A stretch of 64,000 nucleotides of DNA from Candidatus Aenigmatarchaeota archaeon. GTDB taxonomy: Archaea > Aenigmatarchaeota > Aenigmatarchaeia > CG10238-14 > SpSt-28. This document shows, one piece after another, positions 24,059-63,866 of this stretch (the first letter of the stretch is position 1; each line of letters begins with the position of its first letter). Made by a program: the position numbers and the translations under genes. The stretch is from the NCBI GenBank assembly GCA_038997165.1, contig JAWBAK010000001.1, positions 485,320 through 549,319 of the forward strand, given 5' to 3'. A model generated the notes under the pieces. It worked only from the letters and a program-made list of their open reading frames with translations. It had not been told where the DNA came from and ran no database searches.

Positions 24059-24151
24059 AGCCCCGGGAGGGATTTGAACCCTCGACCTCCTGCTTTCTTT
24101 AGCAGGTAGCGCCATACAAGGCAGGCGCTCTACCTGCTGAGCTACCGGGGC
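24059..24151 (-). tRNA. tRNA-Thr(TGT) with 20-nt intron at 37/38 (24095-24114)
   Basis: Reverse-complement cloverleaf GCCCCGG...CCTGC-CT TGT A[intron]A-GCAGG; relaxed BHB. Confidence 0.9.
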
Positions 24152-42098: not shown

Positions 42099-42965
42099 TT
42101 AATAAATCAACTTTAATTTGCAAAATCCGCAAATTTTTTGACTTGTTGGTTCTCCACAAATTTCACATTCTATATACTTTTCTTTTTTAGTTTCTATAAT
42201 TTTCTCGATTTTTTTATTAAACCTTATAATTCCTCTTATAAGTTCTAAATTAAAATTATTAAAATTCTTATCTGAAAACTCTAAAATTTGAAAGATTTTA
42301 TAATCTTCTTTTCTATTTAAATAACAACAAAAATTTGGAGAGTATGGACAGCTAATTTTCGTTATTGGTATACTTTTATATTCACAATACATTTTGTTTT
42401 CGTGTGGGTAAGCAAATATTAATGGTCTAATTTTTATTAGCTGTTTAGGATGTTCACTTTTTAACTTTGGTAAAATTTTTAGATTCCAATCAAAATTTCC
42501 ATGCATTAAATTCTTATAATAATTTATTAGCATGTCATACATATGATGCCCTGTAGCTATTTTTGTAGCTCCTAATTCTCTAGGAATTTTATTCATTAAG
42601 TATCTTTTTATTAATCCGCAAATAGAACAAATTGGTCTTTTTAGTATTTTTGAAATTTCCAAAATATCTAAATTAAATTCTTTTTTTACATTAGTTATGT
42701 AAAGTTCTACACCTAAAAAATTACATATTTTTTCTACTTCTTCTTCCAATCTATCTGAATATCCAAAACCTAAATTAATATGGTAAGCAAAAACTTTAGC
42801 ATTTAAATTCTTTTCTTCAATATACTCTTTTATTAAAGATAGAGCAGCTGAGCTATCTTTTCCTCCACTTATAGCAACAAATATTCTATCTTTATTTTCT
42901 ACAAGTTTATATTTTTCAATAGTTTTAAAAACTTTTTTTCTATATTTTTCAATTTCCTTATTCAT
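42099..42965 (-). CDS. TtuA/Ncs6 (TtcA family) tRNA thiolase
   Basis: SGGKDS PP-loop, CSIC, ATGH, IRPL, CPY, C-terminal CxxC..CxxC. Confidence 0.88.
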   Translation of the reverse strand: MNKEIEKYRKKVFKTIEKYKLVENKDRIFVAISGGKDSSAALSLIKEYIEEKNLNAKVFAYHINLGFGYSDRLEEEVEKICNFLGVELYITNVKKEFNLDILEISKILKRPICSICGLIKRYLMNKIPRELGATKIATGHHMYDMLINYYKNLMHGNFDWNLKILPKLKSEHPKQLIKIRPLIFAYPHENKMYCEYKSIPITKISCPYSPNFCCYLNRKEDYKIFQILEFSDKNFNNFNLELIRGIIRFNKKIEKIIETKKEKYIECEICGEPTSQKICGFCKLKLIY

Positions 42966-53282: not shown

Positions 53283-53970
53283 ATCTATTATTATTATTAA
53301 AAATATAAATTTTTCCAAAAGGTTCTTCTTGCAAAGTTTTAATTTTTTTCTCTAACTCTAATTGAAGAATTGAAAAAAATTTAATATATATTTCTTTCCA
53401 CTCTCTTTTCTCTAAAATTTCTTCAAAAAAAATTTTTTCTCTATTTTTTATTAATTCCAAAATTTTTTGAAAAACTTCATTAATAATCTTATCTATATCA
53501 ATTTCTTCTATTTTATTTATAATATTTTCTTCAAGAATTTTTCTTTTAAGAAGTCTTTTTTCTTTTTTTTCTTTTTGAGCTAAAATCTTTTTTAGCGAAA
53601 AAATTAATTCATCTAAAGTTACTTGAGATATTGGTAACCTTTTAATGGGTAAATTTAGTTCTAAATTACTAATATCTATTTGTGGTAAATCTAAAATTTC
53701 TCTAATTTTTTCTTGAATTTCTTGTTCTTTTGGAAATAACAAATCAACTTTTAATTTTAATAAAAAAATTGCAATATATAGAACTTTTGCTGGAATTCTA
53801 AAATCTAGTTCTTCTGCTTTTCTTATATATTCTAAGAATTTATCACAAAGTCTAACTAAATCTATATCATAAGGATTTAAATTTTCTATTTCTACTATAT
53901 AATAAATTAATTTTTCCCAATTTCCGCTTTCTATAATTTCAAAAATGCTAATATTGCTGCTATCTTGCAT
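53269..53970 (-). CDS. scpA: Kleisin ScpA
   Basis: NPYDIDL..L.DKFL, A..L..A..LL.LK, F..IL.L, QEEPFG.I; directly after smc. Confidence 0.92.
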   Translation of the reverse strand: MQDSSNISIFEIIESGNWEKLIYYIVEIENLNPYDIDLVRLCDKFLEYIRKAEELDFRIPAKVLYIAIFLLKLKVDLLFPKEQEIQEKIREILDLPQIDISNLELNLPIKRLPISQVTLDELIFSLKKILAQKEKKEKRLLKRKILEENIINKIEEIDIDKIINEVFQKILELIKNREKIFFEEILEKREWKEIYIKFFSILQLELEKKIKTLQEEPFGKIYIFNNNNRYEKT

Positions 53971-56413
53971 ATTCCTCTATTTTTAAACTAAGTATTTTAG
54001 ATTCTCCCTCATCTAAAGTAACTCCGTATAGTGTATCTGCATACTTTACGGTAATATCGTTATGAGTTATTATAATTATTTGTGTTGTTTTAGAAATTTC
54101 CTTTAATAAGTTTGCAATTTTTTCTGAATTTATTTTATCTAAAGCTGCGTCAATTTCATCCAATGCATAAAAAGCTGTAGGTTTTATTAATTGCAAAGAT
54201 AATAAAAATAAAATAGCAACTAATGTTTTTTCTCCACCAGATAAACTATCTAAATCAACGTATCCCTTTTCTGGAAATTTAACTTTTATTAGTAATCCGC
54301 TATCTAAATTACTATTATCTTCTAATTCCAATTTTGCTTCTCCTCCAACAACTTTATTGAATAAATAATTAAATCTTTCTGAAACTAAGTTTAAAGTATT
54401 AAAGAAAGTTTCTCTTCTCTTCTTTTCTATTTCATTAATCATTTCAATTACTTTATTTTTTTCTTCCTTTATTTTATCGAATTTTTGCTTTAAATTTTCG
54501 AATTCTTCCTTAATTTTCTCAAATTCATCTATTGCTTTAAAATTTATAGGTCCTAGTGATTTTAATTCAAAATAGACCTTATCATACATTATTGTAAGTT
54601 TTTCTATGTTTTCATCGATAATTTTCTCAATATCTTTAAACTCTTCTAATTCAGTTATATATCTTTCTTTTTCAGCTTCTAGTTTAGCAATTTTAATTTT
54701 ATTATTAGCAACCTTGTTTTGCAAATTAATTTTTTCGTCGAACAATTTTTTTCTTTCTCTTCTTATTTTTTCTAATTCTTTTTCATCTATTTCAGGCAAA
54801 ACTTGAATTTCTATTGGCTTAATTTTTCTTATTTTTTCTTCTAAACTTCTTATTTCTATTTCTAGCAATCTATTTTCTTCTTCTAATTTTTTAATTATTT
54901 CTCTATACTTTTCTATTTCTTTAGATTTTGAGGTATCAGTAATAATTTTTTTTACAACATATCCTCCACTAACTGCTCCGCTTCTCTCTATTAAATCTCC
55001 TTCTAATGTTACCATTCTAACTTTTCCTATTCCAACTCTTTTTGCTGTATCTAAATCTTTAATTATTAAAGTAGTACCAAAAACAAATTCAAAAGCAGGT
55101 CGAAATTTTTTATCATATTCTATTAAATCACTTGCAATTCCTATGACACCATCTATTTCTAAAAATCTTTCATCCAATCTTTTGTAATTAATTTTATCTA
55201 GAGGTAAAAAAGTCGCTCTACCTATTTTTTCCTTTTTCAAATATTCTATGCACGCTTTTGCAACTTCAAAATTTTCAACAACAATATCAAATAAATGATT
55301 AGCTGCAGCAATTTCAATTGCTAATTGATATTCTTCTGGAACTCTCATTAAATTGTGAATAGTTCCATATACACCGTTTAAACCTAAATTTAAAATTTCT
55401 TTTACCGCAATAGGAATTTCTTTTTCGCTTCTAATACTTTCTAAACTATGTATTACATTTAGTAACCTTTCAATTTCTTTTCTATTATATTCGTACTTAG
55501 TTTTTTTAATTTCTAATTCAACTTTTAAATTACTTTCCTCCTCTTTCTTACTTATTTGTTTTATAGTTTTTAAAAGTTTTTCAATTTCTTTTTCTTTTTC
55601 ATCAATTTCTTTATCTAAATTTAAAATTTTTTCAGAAATTTCCTGAATATTTTTTTCAAATTCTTCATTTTGTTTTTTAATAATTTCTATTTGATTATCA
55701 ATTTCTTCTATTTTTTTGATTAATAAAGATTTCTTAATAGTTCTTAACTCTCTTTCTAATTCTTTATATTTTAATGCTAAATTCTTTTGTTCTTCTAATT
55801 CTTTATATTTTTTATATTTTTCTGTAATTATAATTTCAAATTCTCTTAATCTTTGTTCTATTTTTTCTAGATCTTGTAAAGCTTTTTCTTTCTTTTGATT
55901 ATATTCATAAATTCCAGAAAGTTGATCGATAATTTCTCTTCTTTCCTTTTCACTCATTTCAACTATTCTAGTTACATCTCCTTGTAAAATTATATTATAA
56001 CCATCTGGCCTTAAGTTTGCAAAACTTAATAATTCTAATACTCTTTCTCTAGTTTCGGTTTTATCATTTATTTTATAAATTGTATGACCTTTTCTATTAA
56101 CTTTTCTAGTTATTATAACTTCATCGCTATCTATTGGAAATTTTCTATCCGAATTGTCAAAAATTATCGAAACAGAAGCTATATCAGCTGGCTTTTTAGT
56201 TTCAGTTCCTCTAAAAATTAATTCACTTAATTTTTCTGCTCTCATTTGTTTTGCAGAAATTTTTCCCAAAACAAAACAAATTGCATCTATTATATTAGAT
56301 TTTCCACTTCCATTAGGTCCTATTATTACGTTTAAACCATTTATAAACTGAATAACAGTTTTTCTATTAAAACTTTTAAAACCCTGTAAAATAATTTTTT
56401 TAATGTAAACCAT
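53960..56413 (-). CDS. smc: SMC ATPase with hinge and short arms (817 aa)
   Basis: GFKSF, GPNGSGKSN, hinge GRATFLPL/VTLEG..G...GG, LSGGEK, LDEIDAALD. Confidence 0.95.
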   Translation of the reverse strand: MVYIKKIILQGFKSFNRKTVIQFINGLNVIIGPNGSGKSNIIDAICFVLGKISAKQMRAEKLSELIFRGTETKKPADIASVSIIFDNSDRKFPIDSDEVIITRKVNRKGHTIYKINDKTETRERVLELLSFANLRPDGYNIILQGDVTRIVEMSEKERREIIDQLSGIYEYNQKKEKALQDLEKIEQRLREFEIIITEKYKKYKELEEQKNLALKYKELERELRTIKKSLLIKKIEEIDNQIEIIKKQNEEFEKNIQEISEKILNLDKEIDEKEKEIEKLLKTIKQISKKEEESNLKVELEIKKTKYEYNRKEIERLLNVIHSLESIRSEKEIPIAVKEILNLGLNGVYGTIHNLMRVPEEYQLAIEIAAANHLFDIVVENFEVAKACIEYLKKEKIGRATFLPLDKINYKRLDERFLEIDGVIGIASDLIEYDKKFRPAFEFVFGTTLIIKDLDTAKRVGIGKVRMVTLEGDLIERSGAVSGGYVVKKIITDTSKSKEIEKYREIIKKLEEENRLLEIEIRSLEEKIRKIKPIEIQVLPEIDEKELEKIRRERKKLFDEKINLQNKVANNKIKIAKLEAEKERYITELEEFKDIEKIIDENIEKLTIMYDKVYFELKSLGPINFKAIDEFEKIKEEFENLKQKFDKIKEEKNKVIEMINEIEKKRRETFFNTLNLVSERFNYLFNKVVGGEAKLELEDNSNLDSGLLIKVKFPEKGYVDLDSLSGGEKTLVAILFLLSLQLIKPTAFYALDEIDAALDKINSEKIANLLKEISKTTQIIIITHNDITVKYADTLYGVTLDEGESKILSLKIEEYAR

Positions 56414-57772: not shown

Positions 57773-59287
57773 TTAATTTATGCAGTTTTTAATAAATCCA
57801 ATAAAAATTGGATGGGGATCCAAAAATTTTGAAGAAAATTCGGGATGAAATTGAGTACCTATAAAAAATTTATGAGAAGGAATTTCTCCAATTTGCATAA
57901 TATTTTCTTCTTCTTTTGAAGTCCCTGAAAATATGAATCCATTTTTTTCTAGAATCTCTACATATTTTGGATTTACTTCATATCTATGTCTAAATCTTTC
58001 TATAACTTCTTCTTTAGAATATAATTTATAAGCTAACGTACCTTTTTTAATTTTAACTATTTGCCCACCTAATCTCATAGTTGCTCCATATTTTTTCTCT
58101 TTTAGCAATTCTTTTTGCCAAGGTAATAAATCTATTATAGGATGTGGAGTATTTTCATCTATTTCTGTTGAGTTTGCATTTTTTAGGTTACAAACATTTC
58201 TTGCAAATTCTATTGCTTTAATCTTTCCTATAGTTTCAATAGAACCAAATCCACCAGGAACTATTATACCATCGATATTCTTTAATTTATTTATTTCTTT
58301 TTTGTTATTTTCTAAAATTTTAGAATTTATAAAATTTAATAATGGTTTTACTTTAAGTGCTGCACACGCATGCTTAACAGCTTCTATAACAGAAATATAT
58401 GCATCTGGAAGCTCAAAATCCCCTATATCAAAATATTTTCCAATAATTCCAATTCTAATATGTATAGTGGAATTTTTTAAATTATTAACCAATTTTCCCA
58501 TTTTTTTAGTTTTGAAGATTTTTTAGGTAAACTAAGCTTTTCTAATATTTTATTTCCAAAATTTTGCTTTTCAAAAATTAATGGTAATTCATAAATAACT
58601 TCTAAATCTGGTGCTGAAATTATATCTTCTTTTTTGATATTACACATTTATCTAATTCTCTTTCTGATCTAGCTACAATAAAATCAGGTAAAATACTTAA
58701 TCTTCCTAAAAGTTCTACACTTTGTTGTGCAGGTTTTGTTTTCATTTCACCTAAATGTTTTGGAATTGGTAAATAAACAACATGAATAAATAATACATTA
58801 TCTCCCTCAGTTTTCATCATTCTTGCAGCTCTATAATATATTTCATTTTGATATTCCCTACAGTTCCACCAATCTCTATAAGAACTATATCTGCACGATC
58901 TTTTTCCCTATATTTCTAATCCATTCCTTTATTTCATTAGTTACATGTGGAATAGCTTCTACAGTTTTTCCTAAATATTCACCCCTTCTTTCCTTTTCTA
59001 TAACTTTATAGTATATTTTTCCAGTAGTTATGTTATGATCTTTAGTTAAATTTATTCCTAAAAACCTTTCATAATGTCCTATATCTTCGTCTGTTTCCCC
59101 TCCATCCAAAGTTACAAAAACTTCTCCATGTTCAGTTGGTCTTAATGTACTAATTAAGATAAGGATCAATTTTTATTGCAGTAACTTTATAACCTTTAGA
59201 AATTAGTATTCTTCCTATTGACGCAGTTACTATACCTTTCCCTATACCACTAATAACTCCACCACTTATAAAAATGTATGAAACCAT
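57773..59287 (-). pseudogene. pyrG: CTP synthase, fragmented
   Basis: GG.ISGIGKG, HGEVFV..DG.ETD.D.GHYERF, KTKP.Q.SV, PGGFG, RFRHRYE and QFHPE spread over several disrupted frames; GICLG segment deleted. Confidence 0.92.
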
Positions 59288-59325: not shown

Positions 59326-59425
<100 letters not shown>

Positions 59426-63758: not shown

Positions 63759-63866
63759 GGGCCGGTAGCTCAGCATGGTAGAGCGGCGGGCTTTTAGTTT
63801 GATTTACTAAAAGCTCTGAATAATGAAGAAACCCGTAGGTCGCGGGTTCAAATCCCGCCCGGCCCA
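63759..63866 (+). tRNA. tRNA-Lys(TTT) with 34-nt intron at 37/38 (63797-63830)
   Basis: GCGGG-CT TTT A[intron]A-CCCGT; CTTT/GAAG helix with 3-nt bulge. Confidence 0.92.
63797..63830 (+). ncRNA. Putative intron-encoded minimal C/D-box guide
   Basis: 10-nt antisense ACTAAAAGCT, then CTGA (63816-63819), then ATGAAGA (63823-63829). Confidence 0.55.

Follow-up and report, generated by a model that had tools for sequence, protein, structure and literature searches.

The 34-nt intron of the tRNA-Lys(UUU) gene probably works as a half-size box C/D-type guide that directs 2'-O-methylation of the wobble nucleotide U34 in its own precursor, acting in cis and ahead of splicing. Judged from its sequence, the broader claim that the intron guides Um34, in cis or in trans, is very likely correct. 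The gene (63759–63866, + strand; Rfam RF00005, 63.4 bits) stands at the end of the 64-kb stretch of DNA analysed here (the window), and was detected by Rfam and overlooked by ARAGORN. It was the single Lys(UUU) gene found in this 652-kb, 94.5% complete Aenigmatarchaeota genome. Directly upstream, the segment 59478–63716 (+) holds ORFs that we take to be Mre11-like, Rad50-like and metallophosphoesterase-like. On the minus strand, an 817-aa ORF at 53960–56413 is presumably SMC-like, and two short ORFs at 57773–59169, which by their motifs we take to resemble pieces of CTP synthase, are possibly a fragmented gene.

The intron (63797–63830) occupies the canonical 37/38 position, behind the anticodon UUU (63793–63795) and A37 (63796), and all of its parts lie on the + strand. 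The target strand (63789–63798) comprises positions 30–37 and intron bases 1 and 2. A variable hairpin loop of 7 nt (63799–63805; 3–14 nt across the family) links it in the cis fold to the antisense guide, positions −10 to −1 (63806–63815). The guide is followed by box D' CUGA (63816–63819), a D'–C' loop of 3 nt (63820–63822; 3–15 nt across the family) and the C'-like box AUGAAGA (63823–63829). The original prediction had described a 10-nt antisense element against positions 30–37 and two intron bases with one G–U pair, and the pair listing bore this out, the G–U pair being G30–U63815. The boxes and the short loop were likewise present where they had been placed, with CUGA directly after the element. 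In agreement with the D+5 rule, the fifth base before CUGA, A63811, pairs with U63793, which is U34 and the predicted methylation site, and the register statistics given below point to the same nucleotide. AUGAAGA deviates from the C' consensus RUGAUGA, yet in the predicted structure it pairs with the D box, forming a K-loop with the pairs C63816–G63828 and U63817–A63827 and two sheared G–A pairs; covariation of the stem supports this assignment. The intron 5' end, UUGAUUU, is slightly C-box-like and was considered as a C box, but it is not conserved in relatives and was rejected. No match to the C/D sRNA families of Rfam was obtained at the gathering score, and the window matched tRNA and SSU rRNA families only.

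For splicing, GAAG (63825–63828) is in the pairing list the alternative partner of positions 32–35 in the BHB central helix. This helix has four of four pairs in the tRNA-Lys precursor, with no stable helix on the intron side, and three or four pairs in 100 of the 105 family members. The BHB geometry assigns the last two intron bases and A38 (63829–63831) to the 3' bulge. The guide fold and the BHB fold are mutually exclusive, as had been claimed, but the reason needed correction: the overlap of the C' box with GAAG is found here and in just 54 of the 105 family members, and the exclusion arises mainly because the guide takes bases that the BHB needs. In fold prediction, the protein-free guide fold was 3.9–5.6 kcal/mol more stable than the BHB fold. 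The predicted pairing probability of U34 with A63811 was 0.997 at 37 °C and fell to 0.77 at 75 °C, and that of the BHB helix was near zero. The precursor would therefore form the methylation fold first. The near-zero share of the BHB was counted against the guide reading, since it leaves the route to splicing unaccounted for.

In the proposed mechanism, the guide of a new transcript would fold back on the anticodon loop as a hairpin, leaving D' and C' free for the K-loop. In the methylation fold, the upper anticodon stem, the guide duplex and the K-loop would thus meet in a three-way junction. L7Ae would bind the K-loop and recruit Nop5–fibrillarin, and fibrillarin would methylate the ribose paired to D+5, that of U34. 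The RNA would then refold to the BHB, to be cut by EndA and ligated by RtcB. Sister introns would turn the same cassette on the 3' exon and mark position 39. It is established in the cited work that L7Ae binds K-loops, that the duplex held by Nop5 does not exceed 10 bp, and that fibrillarin methylates at D+5 (PMC9670817, PMC7994747).

The prediction called for fibrillarin, Nop5 and L7Ae, and all three are encoded in this genome, with the fibrillarin and Nop5 genes side by side; the splicing endonuclease EndA and RtcB are encoded as well. A simple genome scan gave two C/D candidates of the ordinary two-guide type, each matching 16S rRNA perfectly over 10 bp, so the C/D system appears to be in use in this genome. 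One candidate is free-standing (contig C2, about 18029, −) and the other lies beside tRNA-Pro(CGG) (contig C1, about 263694, +); in each, the 10 bp to 16S rRNA are made by the D' guide. The D guide of the candidate on C2 has 10 bp to U34 of pre-tRNA-Ser(UGA), intron bases included. Candidate stand-alone Nm34 enzymes were a sub-threshold SpoU match and a weak FtsJ-family match. In three metatranscriptomes of the same study, two mappings gave 4 and 10 partial reads on the tRNA-Lys gene, all exonic and none in the intron, and the sole loose read end belonged to a different tRNA.

The modification would likely serve to stiffen wobble pyrimidines, chiefly those of tRNAs that read split codon boxes. 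The 2'-O-methyl group stiffens the wobble base, and Cm34, Um34 and s2Um34 have been measured in tRNAs of other archaea (PMC7668247). All eight isotypes with an intron-guided position 34 read purine-ending split-box codons or are Met or Trp. Split-box tRNAs as the only targets mostly holds for intron guides, but the free-standing candidate aims at U34 of Ser(UGA). Um34 as a replacement for lost wobble thiolation or Elp3 chemistry was also considered and was not supported. An Elp3 gene is present about 1 kb from tRNA-Gln(UUG), and a TtuA/NcsA-like PP-loop protein, below all NCBIfam cut-offs, is encoded in the window (42099–42965, −) about 370 nt from tRNA-Arg(UCU). Since both genes are present, the methyl group would add to other U34 chemistry and not replace it.

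The reading as a single-guide C/D intron held up and proved too narrow, since the genome has nine introns of this kind, the Lys intron included. Fifteen 37/38 introns were parsed, and nine of them carry the guide–D'–loop–C' cassette. In seven (Lys UUU, Met CAU, Gln UUG, Glu UUC, Leu UAA, Leu CAA and Trp CCA), D+5 falls on the tRNA's own position 34. In the other two (Cys GCA and Tyr GUA), it falls on position 39, the guide pairing there with the 3' exon and the intron bases just before it. The introns of Ala CGC, Asp GUC, Ile UAU, Thr UGU, Ser CGA and Ser UGA have no cassette, and the Lys CUU, Gln CUG, Glu CUC and Arg UCU/CCU genes are intronless.

Relatives were collected from four sources: a similarity search (30 loci), a register-forcing scan of 185,579 genomes (69 matches), a guide-blind motif search that matched 72 of 121 phylum genomes (30 loci and 73 regions among the matches listed), and most long tRNA genes from three genomes outside the phylum. 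By eye, the matches of the register-forcing scan comprised 46 archaeal tRNA-Lys introns, 2 tRNAs matched by chance and 21 non-tRNA chance matches. The parser read 239 genes, 186 of them with introns; 30 genes, mostly with extra introns, were left unparsed, and 14 mis-parsed rows were left out. The relatives added Arg(UCU) at position 34 and Thr(UGU) and Lys(CUU) at position 39, giving eight isotypes at position 34 and four at position 39, twelve in all. The guide changes with the anticodon across isotypes. The box spacing was also kept, with D+5 in register in all 15 of the similarity-found introns that have an antisense run.

The register was evaluated on 133 introns that had not been chosen for it, and the boxes were not used in picking the guide; 80 of the 133 had been preselected for the GA...UGA motif, though not for its distance from the guide. 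An antisense run of at least 6 over position 34 or 39 was present in 86 introns. The NNGA box started 5 nt after the target-pairing base in 61 of these, 4 nt after it in none and 6 nt after it in 2, and the 25 register misses include true non-guides as well as cases where another run outscored. The whole layout occurred in 64 of the 133 introns, compared with a shuffled mean of 0.48 and maximum of 5 (500 rounds). Within this genome, the corresponding values were 8 of 15 introns, a mean of 0.04 and a maximum of 2 (2,000 rounds). For the Lys intron on its own, with the last 6 nt kept, 362 of 100,000 shuffles gave the layout by chance (run of at least 6, GA at D+5 and UGA downstream), and 2,223 of 100,000 gave an antisense run of at least 10 over U34.

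The kink stem was examined in 105 introns with a duplex of at least 6, the first UGA being taken without choice; this set includes the register-forced Lys introns. Both pairs were kept in 96 of the 105, compared with 55.2 after shuffling, and in 42 of 49 distinct combinations, compared with 18.9; none of 5,000 shuffles reached either value. D variants such as CCGA, UCGA, GCGA, AGGA, UGGA and AAGA are matched by changes in C'. Guide position −1 was Watson–Crick paired in 1 of 86 position-34 introns, so the working duplex probably extends from −2 to −10 (9 bp). Positions −4 to −6 are paired by construction. Guide positions −9 and −10 covary with intron bases 1 and 2 (44/66 compared with 18.5 and 37/58 compared with 19.3 after shuffling), and pairing drops to 10/41 at −11. 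An end of the duplex at −10 agrees with the 10-bp limit and with the activity that half guides, C'/D'-only ones among them, show in vitro (PMC7229835, PMC9670817). In the position-39 introns, the guide covaries with the two final bases of the intron (19/19 and 18/19), and the linker measures 5 nt in all 19. Because the guides covary with intron bases, the target would be the precursor. As relatives are not independent, more weight attaches to the occurrence in 12 isotypes.

Methylation could also involve the same guide and target in trans, with the excised (circular) intron or a second precursor methylating U34 of another pre-tRNA-Lys. For the tRNA-Trp intron of Haloferax, in vitro data point to trans action (PMC2584109, PMC4090602), archaeal introns circularise, with circles of 21–25 nt detected (PMC3326292), and a 34-nt circle would have a 20-nt spacer beside its one kink, close to the 18 nt reported to suffice (PMC7229835). 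However, the target precursor's own guide would already hold the site, and family members with introns of 25–29 nt and duplexes of 4–7 bp look too short for recognition in trans. The fixed 5-nt linker of the position-39 introns is most easily explained by a constraint in cis, even though 5 nt is also the length of the BHB strand with one base added. Trans action was accordingly considered unlikely. Many family duplexes are 6–7 bp long and closed by loops of 3–5 nt, and from these short hairpins and the stable self-fold we infer action in cis.

More doubtful is a folding switch, in which the L7Ae-bound intron delays or regulates splicing or shields the anticodon without methyl transfer. The mutual exclusion of the two folds, with the guide fold the more stable, would suit such a switch; the kink covariation speaks for structure and not for catalysis, and off-register variants exist. 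A switch, however, needs no D+5 on positions 34 and 39, the known sites of the tRNA-Trp intron, and 61 of 86 introns have the box at this offset while the neighbouring offsets have 0 and 2. It needs neither the unpaired −1 nor the end of the duplex at −10. Slightly less probable still is that the intron is a decaying relic of a longer two-guide intron and is now inactive. Longer versions with extra 3' sequence do exist (L086, L089, L102 and the Trp introns of Nanobdellota), and the Thr(UGU) intron of this genome has lost boxes kept in G003 and G004 of the same genus, but both helices show compensatory changes across families and isotypes, a sign that the short form is still under selection. 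A chance by-product, namely an inverted duplication of the anticodon loop beside a GA-rich BHB strand, deserves almost no credence: although 2.2% of shuffles of this A/U-rich intron give a 10-base antisense run and GA is common in BHB strands, the whole layout far exceeds its shuffled maximum (64/133 against 5), and the kink-stem covariation involves D variants unrelated to the BHB.

The closest known counterpart of the preferred reading, a guide for Um34 acting in cis, is the intron of euryarchaeal pre-tRNA-Trp (Haloferax volcanii; Pyrococcus sR50), which guides Cm34 and Um39 (PMC4090602, PMC2584109, PMC7994747, PMC11408192). According to the published descriptions, the two have in common a 37/38 intron with a BHB, a target at position 34 of their own tRNA (39 in the sister introns), partial pairing with intron bases and hence action on the precursor, and the same three proteins. 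The same descriptions set them apart. The Lys intron has 34 nt compared with 65–105 nt, and one D'/C' kink with one guide, whereas the tRNA-Trp intron has C/D and C'/D' with two guides. Positions 34 and 39 are served here by separate intron classes, while the tRNA-Trp intron guides both. Twelve isotypes are involved here, whereas reviews, in the parts cited, call the tRNA-Trp case unique; PMC4090602 (2014), PMC7994747 (2021), PMC11408192 (2024) and PMC2584109 name, in those parts, the Trp intron alone. The Trp intron of Sulfolobus has 7-bp complements (PMC3326292). The 66-nt tRNA-Met intron of Nanoarchaeum equitans, a proposed C/D box sRNA, is likewise a DPANN tRNA intron with C- and D-like boxes, but it is twice as long, and the cited part of its description names neither a target nor a family of several isotypes (PMC3491384).

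Free-standing wobble guides are known from Pyrococcus, for Leu(CAA), Leu(UAA) and Met, and from Pyrobaculum (sR26, sR27, sR45, sR46 and sR51; PMC6009581). As described, these also place D+5 on C34 or U34, in the overlapping isotypes Trp, Gln, Glu, Leu and Met. Unlike the intron cassette, the guides of both genera are separate two-guide genes acting in trans. Compared with a canonical bipartite archaeal C/D sRNA, the Lys intron has D' after an antisense element of about 10 nt, the conserved D+5 and a predicted C'/D' K-loop, but no terminal C/D K-turn or second guide, for which 34 nt is too short. The intron would work like the Trp intron guide and the C/D sRNAs and is a canonical member of neither, as the second box pair and the second guide are absent.

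One kink and one open-ended guide of at most 10 bp are also found in engineered halfmer guides and in human C/D-like halfmer snoRNAs (PMC7229835, PMC9670817, PMC3001065, PMC1635284). These are described as laboratory constructs or poorly conserved RNAs, whereas the Lys-type cassette is conserved, natural, C'/D'-only and tethered to its substrate. Open-ended half guides with only C'/D' were reported to methylate specifically in vitro (PMC7229835). Two published results count against the guide reading: for a C'/D' half-guide of Methanocaldococcus, 0% activity was given (PMC3001065, Table 2), and a single-site RNP methylated non-specifically (PMC1635284).

Why tRNA introns persist is an open question, and the reviews, as cited, name one archaeal case of self-guiding, tRNA-Trp. 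If the reading is true, a conserved family in a dozen isotypes would amount to a general job for introns in one phylum. The family also offers natural test substrates for two disputed points in the C/D field, namely the activity and specificity of half guides that have C'/D' only, and the cis or trans action of intron guides. We tentatively suggest, at somewhat less than even odds, a portable one-kink cassette of 25–45 nt in at least 12 isotypes of Aenigmatarchaeota, re-aimed in each at its own position 34 or 39, acting in cis, with splicing only after the methylation fold. The tRNA introns would then be checkpoints, and the Trp intron a fusion of two cassettes. The literature covered, subscription papers and supplements being outside its scope, gave no description of a one-kink, multi-isotype family of tRNA intron guides.

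The distribution of the Lys version within the phylum was sampled with an intron-blind Lys(UUU) pattern, which matched 42 of 131 phylum genomes and which genes with extra introns escape. Among 43 rows inspected by eye, 15 held Lys(UUU) introns in register, all in the order of this genome. Another 6 of the 28 Lys introns were antisense but off-register, by 2 nt in G033, G082, G133 and G507 and by 1 nt in G081 and G098. The rest comprised 7 introns without a guide, 10 intronless genes and 5 chance or unclear rows. The guide-less introns, intronless genes and off-register introns were weighed against the guide reading and suggest that many relatives can do without the device or have replaced it. 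In the Lys introns of G033, G082 and G133, two extra bases between guide and box put D+5 on C32, and from their sequences the introns off-register by 2 nt are possibly a Cm32 variant. In tRNA-Lys genes of other genera (L017, L018, L020–L025, L028, L030, L031, L200), a second insertion was observed in the 5' anticodon stem; because it adjoins the guide target, splicing order may matter there.

Outside Aenigmatarchaeota, the occurrence of the cassette was patchy. Around a Woesearchaeota-titled record, 30 loci in a sample of 151 genomes included six Cys position-39 introns, one Trp and one Leu(CAA), and further Trp cassette introns were seen by eye in the phylum of that record. In the Cys (39) and Trp (34) cassettes there (L259, L260, L268, L273–L275; L319, L321, L322, L326, L329, L333, L334), the kink is often hairpin-capped, and the 3' part is often longer. 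Around a Geothermarchaeota-titled record, the 30 loci listed from 201 genomes held one clear intron, that genome's own Lys. Both a Lys and a Cys version are present in the Geothermarchaeota-titled genome and also in the Nitrososphaeria-titled one. A Baldrarchaeota-titled record has a Lys copy at a contig end, which may be foreign.

Several other introns of this genome showed features of their own. The tRNA-Ser(UGA) and Ser(CGA) genes (contig C1, about 374715 and 396305, both +), which are missing from the genome's Rfam tRNA list, have introns of 65 and 56 nt that resemble full two-guide C/D RNAs. The D' guide of the Ser(CGA) intron matches 23S rRNA over 10–11 bp including 2–3 G–U pairs, and the target scan gave no good target for the D' guide of the Ser(UGA) intron. 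The tRNA-Thr(UGU) gene in the window (24059–24151, −) has a 20-nt intron with a 6-base complement to the 3' exon and no D'/C' boxes, which is also complementary to its own D arm; the Thr(UGU) introns of G003 and G004 of the same genus retain the full position-39 cassette (L214, L222). The tRNA-Ile(UAU) gene in the window (59327–59425, −), not called by ARAGORN, has a 25-nt intron without boxes and with a 7-base complement to its own D loop and stem. Finally, the tRNA-Tyr introns (C2:11128–11269; L217, L221) carry, in addition to the position-39 cassette, a conserved two-part complement to the D arm and the anticodon stem.
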